From: a virus
Virus record (IMG/VR): IMGVR_UViG_3300050166_000039
Span: 1 to 64,000 of that record
Strand: one strand, 5' to 3'
DNA: 64,000 bases
How positions within the stretch are numbered: the first letter of the stretch is position 1; every line of letters begins with the position of its first letter. A program made the position numbers and the translations under genes. The notes under the pieces were generated by a model. It did no database searches. It saw nothing but the letters and a program-made list of their open reading frames with translations, and had not been told where the DNA came from. Below are positions 7,355 to 56,506 of this stretch, piece by piece.

Positions 7355-8188
7355 ATGCCAGAATTAGCAGAATTAAAATTGACGGCCGATTTCATTAATC
7401 ACTCGGCTAAAGGTAAAGTTTTTTATGGTGTAAAGAAGAATCCAACGCATAAATGTCCTGATATTGAAGGTGACTTTAAGATGCCATTTACCATTGAGGC
7501 CCAGAGTCGAGGTAAAGAATTGATGCTAATCATTTCACCAATAATCATAGATGAATGGCTTCAATTTAAGAGCGGTACCCCAGTAACCTTGATGATGACA
7601 ATGGGTATGTCGGGTCATTTTAAATGGGTCAATGACGGTGTCTATGAGAAACACGCACACTTACTGTTCAGAACTGAAGGAGGCTCATTGGCTTTTGTAG
7701 ATGTGAGACGCTTTGGTAAATGGAAATGGGGCTCATGGGGTCCAGATCGTGGCCCTGACCCAACCACCGAGTTTCAAGACTTTATCAGAAACATTGCCAG
7801 TAATTTAGGCCGTAAAGAGTTTGATCGTCCTATCTGTGAGATGTTAATGAATCAAAAATACTTCAATGGTATCGGCAACTATTTAAGGGCTGAAATCTTG
7901 TACAGAGTCAACGTTGACCCATTCATCTCGGCCAGAGAAGCGCTTACAGATCATCCTGAAATTTATCAATTATGCCGTTGGGCGCCGATGCAAGCTTATA
8001 AGTTAGGTGGCGGACAGTTAAGAGACTGGGAGAATCCTTTCGGCTCTTATAAGGAGATGATGGAGAGTTGGGATGAGTTTATCCTGTGTTATGGTAACCC
8101 GATGATGGCGAAGGTGGTGGACAGAAACGGCCGAACTTTCTGGTATGACCCAATGAAACAAAAAGTAAATACAATATATAATACCTAA
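7355..8188 (+). CDS. Fpg/Nei DNA glycosylase, NEIL1-like
   Basis: MPE N-terminus, RGKEL, GMSG, FVDVRRFG, H2TH FNGIGNYLRAEILY, zincless finger DRNGRTFW. Confidence 0.9.
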   Translation: MPELAELKLTADFINHSAKGKVFYGVKKNPTHKCPDIEGDFKMPFTIEAQSRGKELMLIISPIIIDEWLQFKSGTPVTLMMTMGMSGHFKWVNDGVYEKHAHLLFRTEGGSLAFVDVRRFGKWKWGSWGPDRGPDPTTEFQDFIRNIASNLGRKEFDRPICEMLMNQKYFNGIGNYLRAEILYRVNVDPFISAREALTDHPEIYQLCRWAPMQAYKLGGGQLRDWENPFGSYKEMMESWDEFILCYGNPMMAKVVDRNGRTFWYDPMKQKVNTIYNT

Positions 8189-32662: not shown

Positions 32663-32724
32663 GAAACAAAGCCCAAGTAACGAGTATAAATATAGTAACA
32701 AGAGAGTTACTGAGTTCTTTAAAA
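32663..32724 (+). promoter_or_regulatory. Class II promoter plus boxA-like element for tRNA mini-cluster
   Basis: GAAAC-N17-TATAA (32663-32689); GAGTTCTTTAAAA (32712-32724). Confidence 0.7.
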
Positions 32725-32733
32725 TAATGAAAT

Positions 32734-39545: not shown

Positions 39546-41231
39546 ATGATTCAGTTAGGCATTTCAGCTTTTTATCATGATGCAGCGGCCTGTATTGTTA
39601 AAAACGGTAAAGTTCTAAGAGCTGTCGAAGAAGAAAGATTCACAGGAGTAAAGCACGATCAATCTTTTCCAATTAATTCAATTAATTGGATGCTAGCCGA
39701 TTTAAACTTAACGATTGAAGACATAGATCAAGTTTGTTGGTACGAGGATCCAGCCCTTAAAAAAGATAGGGTGATTTCAATCTTTAATCAATTCTTCTTT
39801 AAGTCACTATGGAACAGATTTAAGTTTTTAAAGAGACACTCGATAGAAGGAAACATTCCACAATTATTAAAGCATGAATTAGGATACAATGGAGAAATTA
39901 AGTATACTAATCATCATGAAAGTCACGCAGCCTTTTCATATTTTACATCTTCATACAATCACGCAGCGGTAGTGTCAATTGATGGCGTTGGAGAATGGGC
40001 AACCACCACTATTTATAGAGGCGATGGAGCACAGTTGACAAAGATACTACAGGTTAATTTTCCACACTCAATTGGAATGTTATATTCTACAATCACTGCC
40101 TTTTTAGGATTTCAACCAAATGAAGGAGAATATAAAGTGATGGGCTTGGCCCCATACGGAGATCCTACAAAGTATCAGCATCTCCTATTAAACCTAATTA
40201 ATTTTAGACCAAACGGTAAGTTTGAGATTGATCAAACTCATTTTACATGGGGCTATTCAGACACCATCATGTTTAAGGAGTCTTTATGTGAATATTTACA
40301 ACTTCCAGTAAGACTTAAAGGCGAAGAAATAACACAAGACCACAAGGATCTGGCAGTGGCGCTACAAAAAACTTACGAGACAGTATTCTTACATATCCTG
40401 AAAGCAGCGAAGCAGATCACCGGATACGATAACGTATGCTTAAGTGGAGGCTGTGCATATAATGGTGTTGCAAATAATAGAGCGTATGAGGTCTTTAATT
40501 CGGTATGGGTTCCCTTTGCTCCTTCGGATTCTGGCTCTTGTATTGGAGCTTGCTTAGCAAACTATCATGGCCCAAGATGCAACAATACAACACCATACCT
40601 GGGTCCTGTATTCGATGACGATGACGCCAAGTCTGCGTTAAAAGCATGGGAAGATCAGATTGAATGGACAGAACACGAAGAGGCAGAGCTGATAAGTAAA
40701 ACTGCTAAAGCAATCAATGCAGGTCATGTGATAGGCTGGTTTCAGGGCCGAATGGAGTTTGGCGCCAGGGCCTTAGGTAATAGATCTATTCTTGCATCTC
40801 CACTAGGAGAAACTACAAAGGCCAGATTGAATCAAGTGATTAAGAAGAGAGAAGGATTTAGACCCTTTGCGCCTTCATGTGTAGAGAGCGAAGCCGATAA
40901 GTTCTTTGAAATCAAGGACACAGTGCCCTACATGAATCAAGTGATGCAGGTTAGATCGAAATGGAAGATGCCGGCAATTACACACGCTGACGGCTCGGCC
41001 AGAGTGCAAACTGTCAATAAGAAGCAGAATGAAAAGTATCATGCGTTGTTAACCGAGTTAGGCAAGATCTCAGGTTATCCTATCAGCCTAAACACTTCTT
41101 TTAATTTTAAGGATCAGACTATTACAATGACACCGTTTCAGGCCATAGAGCGTTTCTTAGACTGTGACATGGACGTGTTGGTGATTAATAATTTTTACAT
41201 AGTAAAAAGATCTGAAACTTATTCACTGTAA
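39546..41231 (+). CDS. Carbamoyltransferase, NodU/CmcH family
   Basis: HDAAA, EEERF, HHESHAA, DGVGE, EYKVMGLAPYG, EFGARALGNRS, FRPFAP, LNTSFN. Confidence 0.93.
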   Translation: MIQLGISAFYHDAAACIVKNGKVLRAVEEERFTGVKHDQSFPINSINWMLADLNLTIEDIDQVCWYEDPALKKDRVISIFNQFFFKSLWNRFKFLKRHSIEGNIPQLLKHELGYNGEIKYTNHHESHAAFSYFTSSYNHAAVVSIDGVGEWATTTIYRGDGAQLTKILQVNFPHSIGMLYSTITAFLGFQPNEGEYKVMGLAPYGDPTKYQHLLLNLINFRPNGKFEIDQTHFTWGYSDTIMFKESLCEYLQLPVRLKGEEITQDHKDLAVALQKTYETVFLHILKAAKQITGYDNVCLSGGCAYNGVANNRAYEVFNSVWVPFAPSDSGSCIGACLANYHGPRCNNTTPYLGPVFDDDDAKSALKAWEDQIEWTEHEEAELISKTAKAINAGHVIGWFQGRMEFGARALGNRSILASPLGETTKARLNQVIKKREGFRPFAPSCVESEADKFFEIKDTVPYMNQVMQVRSKWKMPAITHADGSARVQTVNKKQNEKYHALLTELGKISGYPISLNTSFNFKDQTITMTPFQAIERFLDCDMDVLVINNFYIVKRSETYSL

Positions 41232-41245
41232 AACGTATAAACTAC

Positions 41246-41680
41246 ATGAAGCACGCAATTACATCAATGTATGCTAATCCCATACATCCCGGACACATAG
41301 AGTGTCTAAAATTATCAAAGGAACTGGCAGATCATCTTTGGGTCATAGTCAATAATGACCATCAGGCACGGTTAAAGAGAGGAGTTGAGTCTTTTCAGGA
41401 TGAGGATTTCAGAGTCACAGTAGTCAAGTCTATTAGATATGTAGACAATGCAATTATCTCAATTGATCAGGACGCAACAGTTTGCACTTCTATTGAGCAG
41501 GTTCATAATTACATTAAGATTATGGATCCTGAGGCAGAGATCATCTTTACTAAAGGTGGTGACCGATTCGCTGATGAAATTCCAGAGAAGAAGGTATGTG
41601 ATAAATTAGGAATTAAGATTGTGGATGGACTGGGCCTTAAAACACATCACTCGAGTCAAATAGTTAAAATTCAATCATAA
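41246..41680 (+). CDS. Cytidylyltransferase-like (HxGH) nucleotidyltransferase
   Basis: NPIHPGH, VIVNND, KGGDR, HSS. Confidence 0.85.
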   Translation: MKHAITSMYANPIHPGHIECLKLSKELADHLWVIVNNDHQARLKRGVESFQDEDFRVTVVKSIRYVDNAIISIDQDATVCTSIEQVHNYIKIMDPEAEIIFTKGGDRFADEIPEKKVCDKLGIKIVDGLGLKTHHSSQIVKIQS

Positions 41681-41880
41681 TGAAAAAGTTATTAGCACTT
41701 GCGTTAACACTACTCGCCTTAGAAGGTTGTGTAGTTAGACCAATGAGAATGTATCCAGTAGGAGGCATCTATATTGGCCGTAGCTCTTATAGAAGAGTGC
41801 CAAACTATCATAGATCAAGAACCTATTGGAGCCCGGTTCCAGTAAAGCCAGTTAAACCCCTTAAACCCAGAAACAGATGA
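41680..41880 (+). CDS. Putative lipoprotein
   Basis: LALEGC lipobox. Confidence 0.55.
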   Translation: MKKLLALALTLLALEGCVVRPMRMYPVGGIYIGRSSYRRVPNYHRSRTYWSPVPVKPVKPLKPRNR

Positions 41881-42332
41881 GAAAATGGTTAGCCAAAAAA
41901 TTATTAGGTAAAGACTATACGGTTGTTGAAACCAATGTAGCACCCAGAAAAATAGTTAAGCCTATTCATATAATGATCGACGAGATCTTACAGGAGTTTG
42001 ATTTCAATAAGGTTCATTATGTAATGCAAGAATTAAACTGGACCTGGGTAAAACAACCTGTAAACGGATTTAAGTCATTTGAAGACATTGAACATGCAGA
42101 GATGGGAGTTCCAAGTCTTGATAGAATTAAGATGGCAGCTGTTGAGAGAATCTGGTCAGCGATTGACGAGGCACAAAACCCTATAAACTCTGAAAACAGC
42201 GAGGATTGTCCATACACATGTTCTTCGGGTGGATTTCAAGCAACTGTTTATAAGGATAAAGAGGGTCTTATCTCACTTATCGCACTAGAGTTCGTATTGA
42301 CAGAATGGGACTCAACTTACGAAGAAGATTAA
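41877..42332 (+). CDS. Hypothetical phage protein
   Basis: FDFNKVHYVM..LNWTW..SGGF. Confidence 0.65.
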   Translation: MRKWLAKKLLGKDYTVVETNVAPRKIVKPIHIMIDEILQEFDFNKVHYVMQELNWTWVKQPVNGFKSFEDIEHAEMGVPSLDRIKMAAVERIWSAIDEAQNPINSENSEDCPYTCSSGGFQATVYKDKEGLISLIALEFVLTEWDSTYEED

Positions 42333-42350
42333 TAATAATATTTATATAAA

Positions 42351-42605
42351 ATGGAAAACACGACTTCACCACAAATTGCCTGCATGAAGCTGAAAGATTT
42401 AAAAGTCTGGATGAATATGCTACCGAATGAATTTTTAGAATATGATTTAGTAGTAGCTGCAAATGGAATACAGCCTAGCGGAGTATTCATATATGAAAAA
42501 GAATATACTGTTAGAGGATTTGATGTCGACGATGTCGGCAAACAAGTTTTATTTTTGCATGCAGCGGACGACAGTAAGGTTAAAAGAAACAAAATTATAA
42601 TCTAG
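42351..42605 (+). CDS. Hypothetical protein
   Basis: ORF in operon. Confidence 0.55.
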   Translation: MENTTSPQIACMKLKDLKVWMNMLPNEFLEYDLVVAANGIQPSGVFIYEKEYTVRGFDVDDVGKQVLFLHAADDSKVKRNKIII

Positions 42606-43757
42606 ATGGAAAATAATAGAAGACCAACTCTTGCATTTGCAACTATGTGCAAAAACGAAGAGCATATCATAGGTGCGGTGTTAGATGCGGTATCTCCATA
42701 CATAGATTACTTGGTGGTGGCGGATAATGGTTCTACTGATAGAACTCTTGAAATCGTGCAAGAGTTTATGGATAGAACTGGAATCCCAGGAGAAATTTAC
42801 AGAGACGAATGGCATGGTTTTGATAAGAATAAAACCATGATGATGGAATATGTATACGATAAAACAGATTACGTATTACACCTAGATGCAGATGACGTAC
42901 TAGCAGGAGACTTTAGCTTCGCTAATCAGGATACAGGATATGACACGTACTTGATGACAATGAAACGTGGTAGTTTTAATTGGAAAGCAACTGTCATTTA
43001 TAACAATAGACTGAGATGGAAATTCTGTGGAGTAGCTCACACTATCATTAAGTGCCTGGATAAACCATTCGGTTATAGCATGGGAGATCTTTCTAGTAGA
43101 GGTTGGGTTATAGCAGATGGTGTTGGTTCAAGAGCGTTTGATCCAAAAAAATATCTGTATGATGCCGAAAGATTACAAAAGCAGTTCTTCGATACTCTTT
43201 ACAATGATCCAGATGGACTAAACACTCGTTCTGTATTCTATACTGCTCAAAGTTTTATGGATTACGGGATGATACAGGAGGCTCTACAGTGGCACTGTCT
43301 TTATTTAAAGCTAAAGAATACTTGGATTGAAGAAGAATTTGAGGCTAGAATGAGAATCTCCAAATGTTTAATGTCTCTTGGCCATGGAAAGGATGAAGTG
43401 ATTCGACAGATGGATGAAGCAATTAAAATATTCTCAGATAGAGCCGAACCATATTATGCATTAGGTTATTATCTAAATCAAGTTGGAGATCATGAATTAG
43501 CGTATCAATACTTATCTAAAGGAATTAAGTGTTCTCTAGAAAATGCTAAATCAAAGTACGTTCTATTCATTGAAGATTATTGTTACGGTATAGGAATGAA
43601 TGATCAGCTTTCAATCGCTTGTATAGGAACTGGTAGAGTTGAACAAGGCATTGCGTTAATCAATGAAATCATAGATGATCCTGTATTTATTGATGATAAG
43701 CCTAGATTAACTGAAAATCTTAAAAGACTAAAAGAACTACAAGCAGTAAATGCATAA
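42606..43757 (+). CDS. GT2 glycosyltransferase with TPR repeats
   Basis: MCKNEE, DNGSTDRT, LDADD, RAEPYY. Confidence 0.88.
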   Translation: MENNRRPTLAFATMCKNEEHIIGAVLDAVSPYIDYLVVADNGSTDRTLEIVQEFMDRTGIPGEIYRDEWHGFDKNKTMMMEYVYDKTDYVLHLDADDVLAGDFSFANQDTGYDTYLMTMKRGSFNWKATVIYNNRLRWKFCGVAHTIIKCLDKPFGYSMGDLSSRGWVIADGVGSRAFDPKKYLYDAERLQKQFFDTLYNDPDGLNTRSVFYTAQSFMDYGMIQEALQWHCLYLKLKNTWIEEEFEARMRISKCLMSLGHGKDEVIRQMDEAIKIFSDRAEPYYALGYYLNQVGDHELAYQYLSKGIKCSLENAKSKYVLFIEDYCYGIGMNDQLSIACIGTGRVEQGIALINEIIDDPVFIDDKPRLTENLKRLKELQAVNA

Positions 43758-44994
43758 TGTAAATACGTTGATTATCGGCGGCGGCATAACGGGTTTATCC
43801 GCCGCTGCTTTTTTGAAAGGAGACTATCTAATCTTGGAAGCCTCTTCTGAATTAGGAGGATATTGTAAGACTACTATGTCAGGTGATTTCGTGTGGGATC
43901 ACTCAGGCCACTTTTTTCATTTTAAAGACCATTCTATCAAAGAATGGATGATGGAAAATATAGAAACTGAAATAGTGGAAGTTGAAAAGATAACAGACAT
44001 TAAATATAAAGATTCTATTATAGATTTTCCATTTCAATATAACGTATATCAATTGCCCGAAGAAGAATTCTTAGATTGTGTTAAAGACGCGTATTTAGCC
44101 TCTGCACAAGAAACCAACTACTCGTCATTTAAGGCGATGATTCAAACAACAGTTGGAAAAGCAATCTGCAACAAATTTTTAATACCGTATAATGAAAAAT
44201 TATATGCATGCGATCTAAATGAATTGGATGCGAATGCGATGGGAAGATTCTTTCCTACCAATATTAATCCTAGTGAACTATTAGAAAGAAATCATGACAC
44301 TGCACGAACTTCTTCTTACAATAACACTTTTATTTATCCTGTAAATGGAAGTCAAGAATTCGTCAATTCAGTTATAAAGAGATTAGATCCTACTAAAATT
44401 AAAACCAATGCTAAAGTTATTTCTATTGACGTGGTCAAGAAAACAGTTCAAACCACAATTGGAGAATTTAGCTTTAAGAATTTAATCAGCACTTTGCCAT
44501 ATCCGATTCTTCAAGATATGATGGGATTAGATTCATCTAATTTAAGTTTCAATAAGGTTGCAGTCTTTAACCTGGGCTTTGATAAAGGAACAGATATTAA
44601 AACACACTGGAGATATTTTCCAGGCAGTGAAATATTTTATAGAGTTGGATTCTATAACAATATCCTGGGAACCGATAAGATGAGTCTTTATGTTGAAATA
44701 GGTGCTAAATCAAATCAGGTTCTATCATCAAAGGATGAGCTATTAGAGATTGTGATTAAGGATCTAAAATCATCAGGCATAATTACTGATCAAACCCTAG
44801 TAGATCATCAATATCTAGAGATGAGCCCGGCTTATGTTCATATTACAGAACAGAGTACTAAATCGTATTCAGACTGGTGCGAAACTCATAATCAAATGGG
44901 AATCTATTCCATAGGCAGATATGGAGCTTGGACGTATTGTTCAATTGAAGACAACATCATAGAGGCTAAGAATACTGCTGAAAAAATAGTGTAA
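43750..44994 (+). CDS. FAD-dependent oxidoreductase (sugar mutase/HemY-like)
   Basis: IGGGITGL, GGYCKT, GHFFHF, GRYGAW. Confidence 0.8.
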   Translation: MHNVNTLIIGGGITGLSAAAFLKGDYLILEASSELGGYCKTTMSGDFVWDHSGHFFHFKDHSIKEWMMENIETEIVEVEKITDIKYKDSIIDFPFQYNVYQLPEEEFLDCVKDAYLASAQETNYSSFKAMIQTTVGKAICNKFLIPYNEKLYACDLNELDANAMGRFFPTNINPSELLERNHDTARTSSYNNTFIYPVNGSQEFVNSVIKRLDPTKIKTNAKVISIDVVKKTVQTTIGEFSFKNLISTLPYPILQDMMGLDSSNLSFNKVAVFNLGFDKGTDIKTHWRYFPGSEIFYRVGFYNNILGTDKMSLYVEIGAKSNQVLSSKDELLEIVIKDLKSSGIITDQTLVDHQYLEMSPAYVHITEQSTKSYSDWCETHNQMGIYSIGRYGAWTYCSIEDNIIEAKNTAEKIV

Positions 44995-45036
44995 AACATT
45001 TTTATTTGTCAGAAATTTTAGTTAAATTTACTCTAT
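44981..45036 (+). promoter_or_regulatory. Class I promoter module (divergent copy)
   Basis: TTTTATTTGTCAGAAATTTTAGTTAAATTTACTCTAT. Confidence 0.6.
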
Positions 45037-45053
45037 AACCAAACAAAATAAGT

Positions 45054-45431
45054 ATGAAAGTAAATTTAGATTTAATTACAGGACTTTTTAAGCGCGCTGA
45101 AAAAGAAATGGACGCCGAACAAACTCTAATCTACGGTATTGTGGAGAAGATGTGTAGCAATCAGGATTCAATTTTAGTTGCGGCTCCAGGTCAAGACACA
45201 GGACAGTTCTATATTAAGAACGATAATAACGGTTACTTCATCGTCTTATCTGGAAACTGTGTTAAGATCACAAATAAGGAGTTGTATCTTGTGCGTTATT
45301 TCGAGATGAACATGATTAAACCTTTAATCGAGTTAGTAAATCAGCGAATCAGTGAGGACTGCAACAAGATTCAAAACAACGTCTTTGTAAGCGAGTTAGA
45401 TGTCTTACAGAATATTTCAGATTCATTATAG
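45054..45431 (+). CDS. Hypothetical protein
   Basis: ORF after promoter. Confidence 0.62.
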   Translation: MKVNLDLITGLFKRAEKEMDAEQTLIYGIVEKMCSNQDSILVAAPGQDTGQFYIKNDNNGYFIVLSGNCVKITNKELYLVRYFEMNMIKPLIELVNQRISEDCNKIQNNVFVSELDVLQNISDSL

Positions 45432-45502
45432 CACTGAAACAAAACACATATATAAAGTATAACAAAAGGAGTTGAGAGACTCTTTTTTAACTTTATCTCT
45501 AT

Positions 45503-46375
45503 ATGAACAAAAACATCGGTATTATTGGGCAGGGTTTTGTAGGTAACGCTGTTAATCAAGGATTAAAGTCTCACTTTAATATTTTAACCTACGACAAATA
45601 TCAAGCAGATAAGTCTAATTCAACACTCTTAGAAATTGTGAAAGAGTGTCACGTTATTTTTGTTTGTGTTCCAACGCCAATGAACTCTGAAACAGGAGAG
45701 GCTTATACTGGTATAGTTGAATCAGTGATTAAAGATTTAGACTATTTTGCTACTTCGATGAATAAACCCACGATTGCAGTCATCAAATCTACCATTCCAC
45801 CCGGAACAACTCTACGCCTAGATAATTCAACTACCACATTAAGAGTAGCTTTCAACCCAGAGTTCTTGACAGAGGCCAATGCAGTTAACGATTTCTTAAC
45901 ACAGGATAGAATCATCGTTGGTGCCAATCATGCATCCACAAGTGAATATGTTGCGGAATTATATCAGTATGCATTTCCTAATGCTAATATCATCGAACAA
46001 GATTCAACCTCAGCCGAGATGGTAAAATATGTCAGCAATTGTTTTCTAGCTGTTAAAGTTAGCTTTGCAAATGAAATGTATGACCTATGTAAAGCTGAAG
46101 GAGCTAACTGGCAAGAAGTAGTTGAAGCAGTTAAGTTGGACAAGAGAATGGGTACCTCACACTGGCAGGTTCCAGGACCAGATGGTGATAGAGGATTTGG
46201 AGGACATTGTTTCCCTAAAGACATGCAGGCTATTAAATACGTAGCACAGATTAATGGCTTACAAGTTAGCACTATCGATGGAGCAATCGAAACTAACGAG
46301 AGAGTTAGACAAGATAGAGATTGGGAGCAGCAAGAAGGCAGAGCAGTGATAAACTTACAGAAAGAATCAATATAA
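45503..46375 (+). CDS. UDP-glucose/GDP-mannose dehydrogenase family
   Basis: GQGFVG, CVPTP, KSTIPPGT, NPEFL, AEMVKY, GFGGHCFPKD. Confidence 0.9.
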   Translation: MNKNIGIIGQGFVGNAVNQGLKSHFNILTYDKYQADKSNSTLLEIVKECHVIFVCVPTPMNSETGEAYTGIVESVIKDLDYFATSMNKPTIAVIKSTIPPGTTLRLDNSTTTLRVAFNPEFLTEANAVNDFLTQDRIIVGANHASTSEYVAELYQYAFPNANIIEQDSTSAEMVKYVSNCFLAVKVSFANEMYDLCKAEGANWQEVVEAVKLDKRMGTSHWQVPGPDGDRGFGGHCFPKDMQAIKYVAQINGLQVSTIDGAIETNERVRQDRDWEQQEGRAVINLQKESI

Positions 46376-47232
46376 TGAAAAAGGTATTAGTAACCGGAGG
46401 AGCAGGATTCGTAGGCTCTAACTTAATTAAACGTCTAAAACAGTTAGACGATAACATCGAAATCACCAGCTTAGATAACTACTTTACTGGAAAGCAGGAG
46501 AATCACATTGAAGGAGTCAAGTATGTAGTCGGTGCAACATGGGATATAGATGAGCTGTTAGGAGAAGAAACTTTCGACACTGTCTTTCACTTTGGTGAGT
46601 ATTCGAGAATCGTAAAGTCTTTTGATGACATTAAGTATGTTGAAAAGACCATTCTATACGGTACACCAAAGGTGTTAGAGATGTGTAGAAAGTGGCAGGC
46701 TAAATTAATCTATTCTGCTTCTTCTTCGAAGTTTGGGAACGGTGGCAAGGACGAGAACCTATCCCCTTACTCTTGGATGAAGTCAAAGATGATTGAATTA
46801 ATCAAGAACTATTCAGAATGGTATGACTTGAAATACGAGATCTGTTACTTCTTTAATGTGTATGGCCCTGGTCAAATTATGGCAGGAGATTACGCAACAG
46901 TGATAGGTATATTCGAGAGACAGAAAAATGCAGGAGAAGACTTAACGGTTGTTACACCTGGAACACAAAGCAGAGATTTTACGCACGTATCAGATGTAGT
47001 GAATGGTGTTGTTAAAGCAGCGACAAAGGGTTTGCAAGGGGAATGGCACCTAAGAAGCGGTATAAATGTAACTATCATTGATGTGGCTGAGATGTTTGGC
47101 GCCGAATGGAAATTGATTCCAGAGAGAAGAGGCGAGAGATTTACAAGCGAAGAATTTCCATCAGATACACAAGAGAAGTTAGAATGGAAACCTGAAATGA
47201 ATTTAATAGATTGGATAAACTCAAGAAAATGA
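46375..47232 (+). CDS. NAD-dependent sugar epimerase/dehydratase
   Basis: TGGAGFVG, YSWMK, NVYGP, RDFTHVSD; start ATG 46375. Confidence 0.9.
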   Translation: MKKVLVTGGAGFVGSNLIKRLKQLDDNIEITSLDNYFTGKQENHIEGVKYVVGATWDIDELLGEETFDTVFHFGEYSRIVKSFDDIKYVEKTILYGTPKVLEMCRKWQAKLIYSASSSKFGNGGKDENLSPYSWMKSKMIELIKNYSEWYDLKYEICYFFNVYGPGQIMAGDYATVIGIFERQKNAGEDLTVVTPGTQSRDFTHVSDVVNGVVKAATKGLQGEWHLRSGINVTIIDVAEMFGAEWKLIPERRGERFTSEEFPSDTQEKLEWKPEMNLIDWINSRK

Positions 47233-47708
47233 AAATAGTAATTGTAGGAAAAGCAGCATCAGGCAAGGATTACTTACGCAAGAGAATGATGCAACAAGGA
47301 GCGAAGTATGGTGTAAGTTATACCACAAGGCCTCCTAGAGTTAAAGACGGGGAAGTCCATGGCGTAGACTACTTATTTACAACTGAAGAGGACTTCTTAG
47401 CGATGGTTGAACGTGACGAAATGATAGAGTATCAGCAATTCAATGGCTGGTACTATGGTATGACAAAAGAAGTGTTTGATCAGTGTGAAGTAATGATTTT
47501 AAACGTCGAAGGCCTAGCAATGTTATCTGATGAAATTAGAAAACAATGCTTCGTTATTTATGTTGACATTGACCAAGAGACCAGAATTGAAAGATTAGGA
47601 GCTAGAAAGGATGTAGATGACTTAAAATGGAGAAGGCTTCAGGCTGATGAAGAACAGTTTAAAAATTTTACAGATTATGATATTAGAATAACAAATCCTG
47701 ACTTTTAG
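47229..47708 (+). CDS. gmk: Guanylate kinase-like
   Basis: GKAASGKD, SYTTRPPR..EVHGVDY, WYYG. Confidence 0.85.
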   Translation: MKIVIVGKAASGKDYLRKRMMQQGAKYGVSYTTRPPRVKDGEVHGVDYLFTTEEDFLAMVERDEMIEYQQFNGWYYGMTKEVFDQCEVMILNVEGLAMLSDEIRKQCFVIYVDIDQETRIERLGARKDVDDLKWRRLQADEEQFKNFTDYDIRITNPDF

Positions 47709-48299: not shown

Positions 48300-48902
48300 A
48301 TGGGATTTATTATTAAAAAGAGTTATTCTAGAGATAACAAAGAGATTACGGAGTTCTACGCAAGAATTCAACAATATACAGTTGAAAGATTTCCTGGAAC
48401 TGCGTACGCAATGGTACAATACTTTATAGATAAAGAAGCAGCTGAAGGCTACACGATGAAATATGCTAGAAATACGTTTCAGCATGAGATGGAACCCTTA
48501 AAGCATGAGAACTTTCCAATCGATATCAGTGAAGACTGTATTATTGGAGGAGAACCCTTTAAGATGCCTGATCCTATTCACGATGATTTTAGAATCTCTT
48601 GCTTTGGATTTTGGTTTCCTTTAGGAGAACCCGCTAAAGTAACCGAAGAACAATATGAAATGCAGGATTCTACAGTAGAGATGCCGTACGTTGATTTTGA
48701 CGAGGATGGAAATCCAGTACAAGCAACAAAGACGATACCTTGCAAGAACAGAGTCTTAGTTAAATCTGAAATAGTTGATCGTCACATTACTAATCACATG
48801 CTACCTGAATTTATGGAGAATCCATACGCATTCTTGTACAAGAGATTAAAACCTGAACTTGAAAAAATCTTCGGTGAAGGTAGTGTAGTTGACGATTTAT
48901 AA
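48300..48902 (+). CDS. Hypothetical protein
   Basis: 200-aa ORF. Confidence 0.65.
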   Translation: MGFIIKKSYSRDNKEITEFYARIQQYTVERFPGTAYAMVQYFIDKEAAEGYTMKYARNTFQHEMEPLKHENFPIDISEDCIIGGEPFKMPDPIHDDFRISCFGFWFPLGEPAKVTEEQYEMQDSTVEMPYVDFDEDGNPVQATKTIPCKNRVLVKSEIVDRHITNHMLPEFMENPYAFLYKRLKPELEKIFGEGSVVDDL

Positions 48903-48920
48903 AAAAGTTAAAATATTTTT

Positions 48921-48947
48921 GAAACAAACAGATATATAAGAGTATAA
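48921..48947 (+). promoter_or_regulatory. Class II promoter for leader peptide and tRNA array
   Basis: GAAAC-N17-TATAA. Confidence 0.75.
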
Positions 48948-48967
48948 CAGTTAAATAAAAACTAACA

Positions 48968-49060
48968 ATGCAACAAATTTGCCTACATATTACGAAAAAC
49001 AATTATTGGTTTAGCAATGAACCGATGACGGTCGATCGTATGCCCGGGCTCCAGAGTTGA
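48968..49060 (+). CDS. Leader peptide MQQICLHITKNNYWFSNEPMTVDRMPGLQS (not in ORF track)
   Basis: ATG 48968 to TGA 49060, A-rich upstream; 19 distinct amino acids; 3' end overlaps the antiterminator arm. Confidence 0.75.
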   Translation: MQQICLHITKNNYWFSNEPMTVDRMPGLQS

Positions 49061-49107
49061 TAAGTTTTTTTGTGATTGATTTCACACCGAACATAACTAA
49101 GAGCCCG
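49045..49107 (+). promoter_or_regulatory. Antiterminator hairpin
   Basis: CGGGCTC-cag-AGTTgAT pairs with AT-AACT-aa-GAGCCCG, enclosing a TGTGA/TCACA hairpin. Confidence 0.72.
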
Positions 49108-49128
49108 ATTTTTAATCGGGCTTTTTTT
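49099..49128 (+). terminator. Intrinsic terminator (attenuator)
   Basis: AAGAGCCCGATT-TTT-AATCGGGC followed by T7. Confidence 0.88.
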
Positions 49129-49142
49129 GTTTCAAAAGTTTA

Positions 49143-49160
49143 GAGTTCTTTGACATATTG
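49143..49160 (+). promoter_or_regulatory. boxA-like antitermination element
   Basis: GAGTTCTTTGACATATTG; related copies at 32712, 49638, 52535. Confidence 0.65.
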
Positions 49161-49168
49161 GTAAAAAA

Positions 49169-49238
49169 GTACGAGATGGTCTTGGAGGCCAATGGGACTG
49201 CAAATCCCATGGAGTTGGTTCGATTCCAACCTTGTACT
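49169..49238 (+). tRNA. tRNA-Cys(GCA), shortened D arm
   Basis: TGGGA-CTGCAAA-TCCCA; U73 discriminator. Confidence 0.85.
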
Positions 49239-49319
49239 CTACATCCTGTCTCTACAGACACACACATCCGGGAGATGAGCAGGATTACGTCGAATAAAGG
49301 AGAAGAATAAGACGATTCT

Positions 49320-49395
49320 GGACTGGTAGCTCAGTTGGTAGAGCACTAGACTGAAGATCTAGGTGTCGCAGGTTCAAGCCCTGCTCGGTCCACCA
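49320..49395 (+). tRNA. tRNA-Phe(GAA)
   Basis: Canonical cloverleaf, CCA encoded. Confidence 0.95.
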
Positions 49396-49398
49396 CAT

Positions 49399-49473
49399 TG
49401 CGGGATGCGTAGAAAATGGTTATCTCATCGGTCTCATAAGCCGAGGTTCCGGGTTCGAGTCCCGGTCCCGCAA
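49399..49473 (+). tRNA. tRNA-Met(CAU), initiator-like
   Basis: TGCGGGA/TCCCGCA, TCGGT-CTCATAA-GCCGA. Confidence 0.88.
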
Positions 49474-49479
49474 CAATAT

Positions 49480-49552
49480 AGAGTAGTATATCAATGGCTA
49501 GATTACACGTTTTGGGTGCGTGAGGTTGCAGGTTCGAGTCCTGCCTACTCTA
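49480..49552 (+). tRNA. tRNA-Pro(UGG)
   Basis: CACGT-TTTGGGT-GCGTG. Confidence 0.9.
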
Positions 49553-49567
49553 CTTAAAAATATTTTA

Positions 49568-49654
49568 AAAATAATTCAACAAATATTTTTTTTATTCGGG
49601 AATTATTGTTATATTTACCTATCTTAACAAATAAGATAGTTCTTTGACATATTG
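49568..49654 (+). promoter_or_regulatory. Class I promoter module plus boxA-like element
   Basis: Repeat consensus 49568-49622; AGTTCTTTGACATATTG 49638-49654. Confidence 0.78.
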
Positions 49655-49664
49655 ATAAAAACAA

Positions 49665-49834: not shown

Positions 49835-49936
49835 AGTCAGGTGGCGGAATGGTAGACGCAGCCCTGCACACAGGAACTGAATCGAATATGAGTGCAGCAT
49901 TTAAGATTTGTACAGGTTCGAATCCTGTCCTGGCTA
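49835..49936 (+). ncRNA. tRNA-like RNA with payload replacing the anticodon arm (family copy 1)
   Basis: AGTCAGGTGGCGGAATGGTAGACGC...ACAGGTTCGAATCCTGTCCTGGCTA. Confidence 0.8.
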
Positions 49937-51215: not shown

Positions 51216-51315
51216 GTATTAGTAATTCAGTGGTAAGACTGGCGTCCCCTCATGGTTAAGGGCCTAAAAGCTGGGAATAAGACGATCGCCGTTGGTTCGA
51301 GTCCAACCTAATACT
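51216..51315 (+). ncRNA. tRNA-like RNA with expanded anticodon loop
   Basis: GTATTAG/CTAATAC acceptor, normal T arm, CGTC/GACG stem enclosing 34 nt. Confidence 0.7.
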
Positions 51316-52465: not shown

Positions 52466-52552
52466 AAAATAATCGGTAAAAGATTTTTATTTGTCGAAAC
52501 TTTTAGTTATATTTACATATAATTAAAAGATTTAGAGTTCTTTGATGTATTG
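52466..52552 (+). promoter_or_regulatory. Class I promoter module plus boxA-like element
   Basis: AAAATAAT...TTAGTTATATTTACATAT; GAGTTCTTTGATGTATTG 52535-52552. Confidence 0.72.
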
Positions 52553-53276: not shown

Positions 53277-53361
53277 GGTTAGGTGGCGGAATGGTAGACG
53301 CAACGTGGGACCTTCTGTTGGTGCAGCACGATAGATACAGGTTCGAATCCTGTCCTGACTA
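53277..53361 (+). ncRNA. tRNA-like RNA with payload (family copy 4)
   Basis: GGTTAGGTGGCGGAATGGTAGACGC...ACAGGTTCGAATCCTGTCCTGACTA. Confidence 0.78.
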
Positions 53362-54654: not shown

Positions 54655-54727
54655 GGGATTGAGGTCAAACGGTTAAGATATCGCACTGTCACTGCGTATG
54701 GAGCGGGTTCAACTCCCGTCAGTCCCG
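54655..54727 (+). tRNA. tRNA-Asp(GUC)
   Basis: CGCA-CTGTCAC-TGCG; G73. Confidence 0.9.
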
Positions 54728-55324: not shown

Positions 55325-55402
55325 AGGCAAGTATCCACCCGATCTGATACGTCGGAGCAAGGTAACTGGTTGAAAATGTGGGTTCGAATCCCATCTTGCC
55401 TA
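55325..55402 (+). tRNA. Atypical tRNA-Ile(GAU) lacking a conventional D arm
   Basis: AGGCAAG/CTTGCCT, CCGAT-CTGATAC-GTCGG, normal T arm. Confidence 0.65.
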
Positions 55403-55417
55403 CTAAATTTTATCAAT

Positions 55418-56506
55418 ATGAAAAGTAATGAGTTCTTGAAGGCATACTTAAATGCCTATTCACCGGTTGCACAAGAGACCGAAGGTCAACAAATTTGGGT
55501 TGACTACGTAAAACAATTCACCAATGAAGTTAAGGTAGATGCTTATGGCACTGCAGTTGCCAGAGTTCAAGGTTTTCAACCTATTTTACAACATAGAATG
55601 GGTATACCATATAAAGTTGTGATTGAAGCCCATTGTGATGAGATTGCATGGATTGTAACTCAAATCGAGAAAGAAGGCTTTATTAGAGTTGCAAGACACG
55701 GCGGCTCAGATAACATGATTGCTGCCTCTAAAACTGTCCTAATTCACACCCATAAAGGGCAGAAAGTACCAGGAGTTTTTGGGCACCCAGCTATTCATAC
55801 TCGAGATTCACGTGTGGAATTAGGACCTGAGTACCATGAGTTATGGATTGACTTGGGTGTTGACTCCGATGAGAAGGTATTAGAGCTTGGAGTTGAGGTT
55901 GGCAATGTAGTTACTTTCGACGATCAATTTAGTGAACTTGGAGACTACTATGTTGGCAGGTCATTGGATAATAAGATTGGCGGTTTCATTATCGCAGAGA
56001 CATTGAGAAGACTCACAGAGCTAAAAATAACCCTACCCTATGATTTATATGTAGTTAATTCAGTACAGGAAGAGGTTGGCTTATACGGTGCAAAGATGAT
56101 TGCCAAATCTTTAAAGGCTGACCTAGCACTGGTGCATGATGTTTGTCATGACACTAACACACCAAAGATGAACAAGGCGAAGGACTCCGATGTGAAAGGC
56201 GGTAAAGGCCCAACTCTAGAGTTCACAGCTCAGAACCATAGAATGATCATCTCTAAGTTAAGAGAGATTGCCGAAGCGTCAGCGATGGACTTACAGTTAC
56301 AGGTTGGTAGTTATGGTAATGACACTATGGCATTCTTCTTAGAGAATACTCCAACGGCAATTGTTGCAACACCATTAAAATACATGCACTCAACGTGTGA
56401 AATGGCTCACAAGCGAGACGTAGAAAATTGTATTAAATTATTTGTAAAATTTTTATGCAATATTAAACCAGAATGGATAGATACTGTAAAAGGTGAAACA
56501 TTCTAA
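55418..56506 (+). CDS. M42 family metallo-aminopeptidase
   Basis: EAHCDEI, SLDNKIGG, VQEEVGLYGA, DVCH, KYMHS; start ATG 55418. Confidence 0.92.
   Translation: MKSNEFLKAYLNAYSPVAQETEGQQIWVDYVKQFTNEVKVDAYGTAVARVQGFQPILQHRMGIPYKVVIEAHCDEIAWIVTQIEKEGFIRVARHGGSDNMIAASKTVLIHTHKGQKVPGVFGHPAIHTRDSRVELGPEYHELWIDLGVDSDEKVLELGVEVGNVVTFDDQFSELGDYYVGRSLDNKIGGFIIAETLRRLTELKITLPYDLYVVNSVQEEVGLYGAKMIAKSLKADLALVHDVCHDTNTPKMNKAKDSDVKGGKGPTLEFTAQNHRMIISKLREIAEASAMDLQLQVGSYGNDTMAFFLENTPTAIVATPLKYMHSTCEMAHKRDVENCIKLFVKFLCNIKPEWIDTVKGETF

Follow-up and report, generated by a model that had tools for sequence, protein, structure and literature searches.

A probable ribosome-mediated transcription attenuator in front of the tRNA array of a large freshwater Bacteroidota phage

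The DNA analysed here, called the window throughout, is a stretch of 64,000 nucleotides (nt) from a virus (positions 1 to 64,000 of IMG/VR virus record IMGVR_UViG_3300050166_000039) and makes up the first 64 kb of an 82-kb phage fragment with a GC content of 38%. Our subject is a short cassette that lies, with all its parts on the plus strand, between a gene ending at 48902 and a large array of transfer RNA (tRNA) genes. After the stop of that gene come, in order, a promoter-like stretch, a 30-codon open reading frame (ORF), a 38-nt spacer with a small hairpin, an intrinsic terminator, a boxA element and tRNA-Cys. The original prediction, made by a model from the sequence, had read this arrangement as a leader-peptide attenuator that samples nearly all amino acids and gates the array as a general sensor of tRNA damage, and the ORF, the terminator, the boxA and the array were found exactly where they had been placed. 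As argued below, the cassette is probably a ribosome-mediated transcription attenuator, controlling read-through from the leader promoter into the tRNA array and reporting tRNA supply.

The promoter-like region (48918-48955) consists of TATTTTTG, then TTGAAAC, 18 nt and TATAAC; it is conserved in five relatives (loci L001, L052, L046, L005 and L057), conservation among relatives covering 48918-48950, and the leader transcript is predicted to start from it. The leader ORF extends from the ATG at 48968 to the TGA at 49058-49060 and encodes MQQICLHITKNNYWFSNEPMTVDRMPGLQS, a peptide of 19 distinct residues from which Ala is absent. Its upstream context is A-rich with no Shine-Dalgarno sequence, the same as for the phage's own genes, of which only 2 of 76 have a Shine-Dalgarno sequence; such A-rich starts are typical of Bacteroidota. 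Within the ORF are an ACATAT motif (48985-48990, nt +17 of the ORF) and a predicted 11-bp hairpin with a GCAA loop (49003-49028), largely kept in L001 and L052, which may possibly serve as a pause hairpin. The 5′ strand of the antiterminator, CGGGCUC ... AGUUG (49045-49059), spans the five sense codons at the end of the ORF together with a portion of the stop codon, and by duplex and nascent-RNA folding it pairs with 49094-49107, the segment shared with the 5′ arm of the terminator. The complementarity of CGGGCUC (49045-49051) with GAGCCCG (49101-49107), extended by AGUUG (49055-49059) with UAACU (49094-49098), holds base for base. The terminator itself (49099-49131) has a 12-bp stem reaching to 49125 (-15.3 kcal/mol), a 3-nt loop and a T-run to ~49131, and is followed by the boxA GTTCTTTGACATATTGG (49145-49161), identical to the boxA of Bacteroidota ribosomal RNA (rRNA) operon spacers. 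An intrinsic terminator is found, then, between leader ORF and tRNAs, and a mutually exclusive antiterminator is placed where the position of a ribosome can decide between the two.

When the window RNA is folded as a nascent transcript that ends at the terminator loop, formation of the antiterminator has P=0.99, the compound structure having -22.3 kcal/mol against -15.3 kcal/mol for the terminator hairpin. With the ribosomal A site at codons 24-30 or at the stop (codons 24-31, stop included), that probability is 0.00, and with stalls at codons 2-22 it is at least 0.85, which is in favour of the original prediction. Because stalls at codons 2-22 are those to which the fold responds, 16 of the 19 amino-acid kinds fall in the sensed stretch; Arg, Gly and, marginally, Asp come too late in the window leader for sensing, in line with the earlier caveat about the last codons. 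In the nascent RNA, the antiterminator strand is not tied up by the hairpin at 49003-49028.

Relatives of the array were collected with the protein encoded downstream of it (55370-56506) as query, which yielded 56 viral loci. A loose boxA pattern search, with many unrelated contigs among the matches listed, supplied diverse tRNA arrays for comparison, and narrow DNA patterns for the core of the leader ORF and for the terminator gave one new contig each. On these a blind rule was used, in which a strong terminator at most 200 nt upstream of a tRNA was located and the preceding sequence was then inspected. It returned 29 distinct leaders in phage tRNA-array loci, the window included, with the cassette in the form of a promoter, an ATG-initiated ORF of 24-50 codons, an ORF stop 20-38 nt before a strong terminator, and a first tRNA 10-140 nt further on; two further sites found by the rule have GTG-initiated ORFs. 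The ORF is kept in the 29 loci, as is expected of the short ORF of a leader-peptide attenuator, and a comparable ORF was found in 3.8% of dinucleotide shuffles of the same upstream regions. Bacterial rRNA operon (rrn) loci, taken as a control for the rule, gave 4 weak terminator-like matches before tRNA-Ile and no leader ORF. Moreover, the first tRNA is only 10-20 nt past the terminator in many loci, which leaves no room for a separate promoter. Leader DNA is still recognisable in L001 and in the L052/L046/L005/L057 group, where the ORF is kept (35 codons) and the upstream gene is different; relatives do not share what lies upstream, so the cassette moves together with the array. In the more distant L008 group, L022 and L031, promoter, ORF and terminator are kept with different sequences, and the first gene past the terminator in L022 and L031 is that of transfer-messenger RNA (tmRNA).

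Several of these loci have peculiarities of their own. In two related phages (L179 and L180, reverse strand, ~1-330; L022, 1-520), a phage-encoded tmRNA comes first after leader and terminator, with boxA and tRNAs next, which places a ribosome-rescue RNA behind a putative stall sensor. L077 (reverse strand) has two leader cassettes, with terminators at 7942 and 10730; one leader is Asn-rich and stands before Leu(TAA), Arg(TCT), Pro and Asn, and the other contains FIICSKW and stands before Ile, Phe, Lys, Trp, Arg and Cys. The ACATAT motif is present in 12 of the 29 leaders (about 1 expected), at +14 to +20 after the ATG and in any reading frame; the form A[AC]ATAT is at the same position in L001, L005, L101, L130, L145, L156, L092, L077, L114 and L141, and the same letters occur within boxA (GACATATTGG). 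This motif could be a pause or synchronisation signal.

To assess antiterminator pairing, the best duplex that the 90 nt preceding the terminator can form with the terminator 5′ arm was determined for each leader and compared with 500 dinucleotide shuffles. The duplex was better than the shuffles at p<0.05 in 16 of 25 leaders (Fisher 4e-16); for the window it has -15.4 kcal/mol, against -8.0 ± 1.8 in shuffles (p=0.006). In a cross-pairing control, in which every leader was tried against every other terminator arm with similar arms excluded, a leader's own arm was its best partner in 9/25 and among the top three in 17/25 (mean z -1.8, Wilcoxon 1e-4), and the window leader was the best of 20 non-related leaders on the window terminator arm. 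The complementary segment varies along with the terminator: CGGGCTC/GAGCCCG in the window, TTTGGGTTT/AAACCCAAA in L180, AGTTCGGGT/ACCCGAACT in L078 and L113, and GAGATGG/CCATCTC in L114. In the significant leaders, it lies at most 36 nt and mostly at most 25 nt before the stop codon, or, in L078, just after it. Across the family, folding gives a terminator 5′ arm that is paired to 62% in free RNA, to 63% if a ribosome is stalled in mid-ORF and to 37% if it sits at the stop (p=1.6e-5). Relatives and unrelated phages alike keep an ORF, a terminator and an antiterminator that co-varies with it, an outcome in favour of the original prediction, which had proposed a comparison with related phages.

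Frame, length and stop position are conserved among the leaders and the peptide is not. Differences between homologous leaders are distributed over the three codon positions as 54/56/65, and their 110 differing codons comprise 22 synonymous and 88 nonsynonymous ones, approximately the neutral expectation. Judged from these comparisons, conserved translation of an unconserved peptide is the signature of a regulatory leader; a small functional protein was considered and rejected, there being no purifying selection on the peptide between homologous leaders. The diversity of the window peptide is unusual by itself, in that at least 19 distinct residues in 30 have P=0.006 if the amino-acid usage of the phage is taken as the basis, and P=0.0036 if real 30-residue windows from phage proteins are. 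As a trait of every leader, the sampling of nearly all amino acids had to be given up (mean z +0.67, range -2 to +3.3). What stands is a correlation of leader diversity with array diversity (rho 0.45, p=0.015, incomplete loci included), and this accounts for the 19 of 20 amino acids in the window leader, which has the form expected of a leader sampling an array of 18 to 19 amino acids. All 20 amino acids are found in the leaders of L141 (31 codons; reverse strand, terminator 12343) and L119 (48 codons; terminator 6713), both of which precede broad arrays. The coincidence that the window has neither Ala in its leader nor a tRNA-Ala is correct for both the window and the whole 82-kb contig, in neither of which was a tRNA-Ala found, but it is a single data point that was set aside, because relatives do not always conform to it: in L001, the leader has no Arg despite a tRNA-Arg, and the L008 leader has no Cys and no Glu despite both tRNAs.

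A further line of evidence is the match between leader codons and downstream tRNAs. At the amino-acid level, leader residues with a tRNA at the same locus number 504, against 453 expected, and when tRNA sets are permuted among loci the excess is gone (45 vs 0.3 ± 10); at the codon level, the enrichment relative to each locus's own long ORFs has z=5.9. Counting codons cognate to the first five downstream tRNAs under simple wobble rules, 230 of 910 leader codons match, an excess of 66 vs -3 ± 10 for permuted pairings, and z is ~6.4 with one representative per homology group. Only when read in the ORF frame do the leaders show the match (z=7.45); |z|<1.9 holds for the remaining two sense frames and for all three antisense ones. 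Matched codons make up 35-39% of those at 9-24 codons before the stop and 17-20% of the last eight, a distribution which suggests that they sit where an attenuator needs them. Individual leaders make the point visible: in L092, FDFAFFAAEADE stands before Phe, Glu, His, Asp and Ala; in L123, LYNIDLYLDMDD stands before Tyr, Leu, Leu, Met, Leu and Asp; in L122, ANINIANNYPCNAGNPDYD stands before Pro, Asn, Asn, Asp, Ala and Tyr; and in L080, KEDDLLED stands before Glu and Asp. At the family level, then, the leaders carry candidate regulatory codons that follow the tRNA content of their loci, a relation that the original prediction had proposed to look for. For the window, the codon choices noted earlier are as described, with Leu as CTA/CTC, Arg as CGT and Ser as AGC/AGT, the UAG, ACG and GCU tRNAs belonging to the array, and a separate locus at 32.7 kb carrying those for Leu(TAA) and Arg(TCT). 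This latter tRNA pair has a boxA variant and was found to have no leader and no terminator.

There are four boxA-like elements in the window, each directly 5′ of a tRNA (32714-32729, 49145-49161, 49639-49655 and 52537-52552). The exact 17-mer GTTCTTTGACATATTGG is found in many Bacteroidota genomes (Pedobacter, Mucilaginibacter, Chitinophaga, Bacteroidales and others), and, in host loci with known flanks, it is mostly right after tRNA-Ile and tRNA-Ala in the spacer that separates the 16S from the 23S rRNA gene. That spacer is the classical position of boxA, and antitermination by the rRNA-operon boxA acts via NusB/NusE. Being identical with the rrn boxA of the host phylum and located at the start of an untranslated RNA operon, the boxA at 49145 is a candidate rrn-type antitermination element. 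It differs from the host signal in being phage-borne, in its four copies before tRNA blocks and in its position downstream of an attenuator. Phage tRNA arrays often contain the 17-mer: of 115 viral loci with the motif, at least 55 have three or more tRNAs. It seems that these arrays borrow the signal which the host uses for rRNA antitermination.

The anatomy, the conserved ORF, an antiterminator that co-varies with the terminator, a codon match confined to one frame and the logic of the folds are all computed observations, and they combine into the following scheme. RNA polymerase would transcribe the 30-codon leader, and the end of the leader (49045-49059) would pair with the terminator 5′ arm as soon as that arm emerges, so that the terminator is blocked. 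The polymerase would then continue, acquire the boxA antitermination signal and transcribe the tRNAs, those polymerases that escape being resistant to termination. A ribosome that arrives smoothly at the last seven or eight codons or the stop would cover 49045-49059, allowing the terminator to fold and ending transcription (OFF); one delayed at codons 2-22 would leave the switch ON. Since leaders across the family are composed of codons which the tRNAs directly behind them read, a delay would report a shortage of exactly those tRNAs, and the device would act as a supply sensor or negative feedback loop for the array. We infer from the sequences that leader translation, stalling and regulated read-through do occur. 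The attenuator mechanism of the original prediction is in this sense supported by folding, conservation, codon tracking and diversity.

Several results weigh against this scheme. Nine of the 25 leaders have no significant antiterminator, and in the window the full-length RNA at equilibrium favours the terminator, which means that the switch, like that of classical attenuators, must be kinetic. In the nearest relatives (L001 and the L005 group) and in L119, L122 and L178, the antiterminator segment is 16-36 nt before the stop and is left uncovered by a ribosome parked there, so that masking by a passing rather than a terminating ribosome is needed. No trp-like 1:2 anti-antiterminator was detected when the antiterminator strand was compared with the upstream ORF (Fisher 0.72); lacking a 1:2 hairpin, untranslated RNA should read through, unlike in trp. 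The window on its own has a codon match of 0.83 vs 0.74 in the phage's own ORFs, which is not significant alone; since the array reads most codons, the match cannot be separated from background there. The loci are, moreover, partly interrelated and many are incomplete. Lastly, only four tRNAs depend solely on the attenuator, namely Cys(GCA), which is the first at 49169, Phe(GAA), a CAT tRNA and Pro(TGG), together spanning 49169-49553, and two internal promoters feed most of the array, bypassing the attenuator. One promoter-like block, conserved in L001, is followed by a second boxA (49568-49661) and then by tRNA-Gly and the remaining array to ~55402; the other, with a boxA variant (52489-52552), precedes tRNA-Leu(TAG), so that two of the four boxA copies come after internal promoter-like blocks (49568, 52489). 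That internal promoters also feed the array had been foreseen, and because of them its gating is partial.

It might be asked whether the cassette senses particular tRNAs at all, or general translation capacity and transcription-translation coupling, such that any global slowing of ribosomes (ribosome shortage, infection stage, antibiotics, host shut-off) would open the switch and codon content would be secondary. A three-segment design with no 1:2 hairpin, in which any translation failure gives read-through, would suit such a role, as would the lack of repeated regulatory codons in the window leader, the tmRNA, a rescuer of stalled ribosomes, standing first behind the switch in L022 and L031, and the precedent of uORF attenuators (upstream ORFs) that answer translation stress (PMC12121999). 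Nevertheless, we regard this as unlikely, since a locus- and frame-specific codon-anticodon match (z ~7) would be unexpected if only global translation mattered, and the matched codons occupy the very stretch where stalls would be sensed. The same match is left unexplained if the leader is a stand-alone mini-gene or small RNA whose ordinary terminator shields the array from upstream transcription, the tRNAs being made from their own promoters or by constant leak-through. The internal promoter-like blocks with boxA at 49568 and 52489, the equilibrium preference for the terminator and the leaders without a clear antiterminator would all fit that arrangement; the neutral evolution of the peptide, the first tRNA 10-20 nt after the terminator with no promoter room in many loci, and an antiterminator that co-varies with the terminator do not, and we give it a low probability, somewhat below that of the capacity sensor. 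Ribosomes could also be dispensed with altogether, if leader triplets, which are indeed complementary to downstream anticodons, bound the anticodons of uncharged or damaged tRNAs directly, in the manner of a T-box, and so tipped the balance between terminator and antiterminator. Such pairing is very improbable given that the match is confined to one ATG-started, open reading frame, that no T-box or other Rfam family reaches threshold, and that no conserved platform for the tRNA acceptor end was seen. What makes all three of these explanations less likely is that the codon match is frame-specific, that the peptide evolves neutrally, that room for a promoter is missing and that the antiterminator co-varies with the terminator.

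As to purpose, a ribosome-mediated attenuator of this type could serve either supply homeostasis or a defence alarm, and the link to tRNA damage made by the original prediction is a guess on purpose, not on mechanism. A host anticodon nuclease or other system that cleaves tRNAs might cause stalls on the matching codons, and hence the production, within seconds, of nuclease-resistant replacement tRNAs (and of tmRNA, in relatives); we give this idea a low probability. It is made plausible by the documented ways in which phage tRNAs counter tRNA-cleaving defences (PMC10264068, PMC11555353, PMC11464382). If it were true, one 30-codon leader sampling 16 or more amino acids would be a broad detector of damage to the tRNA pool.

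Among known systems, the closest in design are the attenuators of amino-acid operons in enterobacteria, which include multivalent leaders such as ilvGMEDA (Leu/Val/Ile) and thr (Thr/Ile) besides the trp, his, leu and phe leaders. They share with the phage cassette a short ORF close to the promoter, an intrinsic terminator behind it, a competing pairing that uses the terminator 5′ arm, regulatory codons upstream of the shared pairing, a decision by ribosome position and the sensing of more than one amino acid. They differ in that biosynthetic enzymes are controlled rather than tRNAs (tmRNA in relatives), and in having runs of one to three amino acids where the phage leaders have up to 16-20 amino acids matched to anticodons; for the phage, moreover, no 1:2 anti-antiterminator was detected, the Bacteroidota host is without Shine-Dalgarno sequences, and a boxA comes after the terminator. 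Such enterobacterial attenuators have been modelled (PMC1183508). The Rfam family Trp_leader (RF00513) matches 49052-49129 with 28.6 bits, below its gathering score of 41; the terminator region drives this sub-threshold match, the window leader has no tandem Trp codons and it is not a member. Between 48000 and 56000 there was no T-box match at E<=1. In translation-stress uORF attenuators, i.e., the leaders of antibiotic-resistance genes and E. coli topAI-yjhQ (PMC12121999), stalling in a short ORF likewise switches on what lies downstream and the peptide is dispensable, but these answer drugs or arrest sequences and control protein genes, partly via Rho or translation, whereas here the codons mirror the controlled tRNAs. 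The nearest functional parallel found is the Anabaena trn operon (PMC8421152, PMC10272220), an accessory tRNA array that is on when translation is impaired; there, control is at the promoter, by the repressor TrcR acting on direct repeats, and the words attenuat-, leader and terminator are absent from the text of the 2021 Anabaena trn paper. Full-text literature searches gave no account of leader-peptide attenuation of tRNA genes.

The purpose and the control of phage tRNA arrays have been debated for decades; it has been proposed that the arrays serve codon compensation, that they replace host tRNAs which have been degraded, and that they let phages escape defences which cleave tRNAs (PMC10264068, PMC11555353, PMC11464382). 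If the attenuator is real, it would provide the first cis-regulatory logic for such arrays, with tRNAs made on demand in proportion to the decoding shortage. Classical attenuation, which answers to amino-acid supply, would thereby be extended to the supply of tRNAs, and this in the Bacteroidota, where translation-coupled control is little studied. The leader would also constitute a compact, naturally occurring sensor that reads the speed of decoding at many codons simultaneously.

The source of the window is a large freshwater Bacteroidota phage. Matching DNA sits in freshwater metagenomes, and the genome of one close relative is complete, at 256 kb, and bears terminal repeats. A DNA search of the phage collection with the window gave tRNA matches only and no close relative, the upstream 200-residue protein used as query found no related loci, and the flanking small proteins have no PHROGs family. 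Assembled contigs from four freshwater metatranscriptome sets span 48300-49092 (from a relative ~94% alike, stopping at the contig end) and 48885-49042 (identical). None of the four contig sets spans 49104-49170; contigs show neither transcript ends nor levels, and DNA carry-over is possible. Upstream of the array is an auxiliary metabolic block (39546-47708) with PHROGs matches to a Nol-like carbamoyltransferase, a UDP-glucose dehydrogenase, a nucleotide-sugar epimerase and a guanylate kinase.

The array itself extends to ~55400 and comprises 19 tRNAs detected by ARAGORN, among them an Asp(GTC) tRNA at 54655, and several atypical ones detected via Rfam. An atypical RNA at 55325-55402 has an Ile(GAT) anticodon arm identical to that of the relatives' tRNA-Ile, with a deviant D arm and a long extra arm, and further atypical tRNA-like genes at 51216-51315 and 53277-53361 have insertions in or near the anticodon loop. 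Between 49829 and 50561 there are three or four tandem units with a common tRNA-like 5′ end (acceptor and D arm), a common 3′ end (T arm and acceptor) and differing middles. According to ARAGORN they are not normal tRNAs, and the Rfam tRNA model scores 38 bits at 49835-49936; these tandem units are the reason for the apparent “joints” in RNA contigs.

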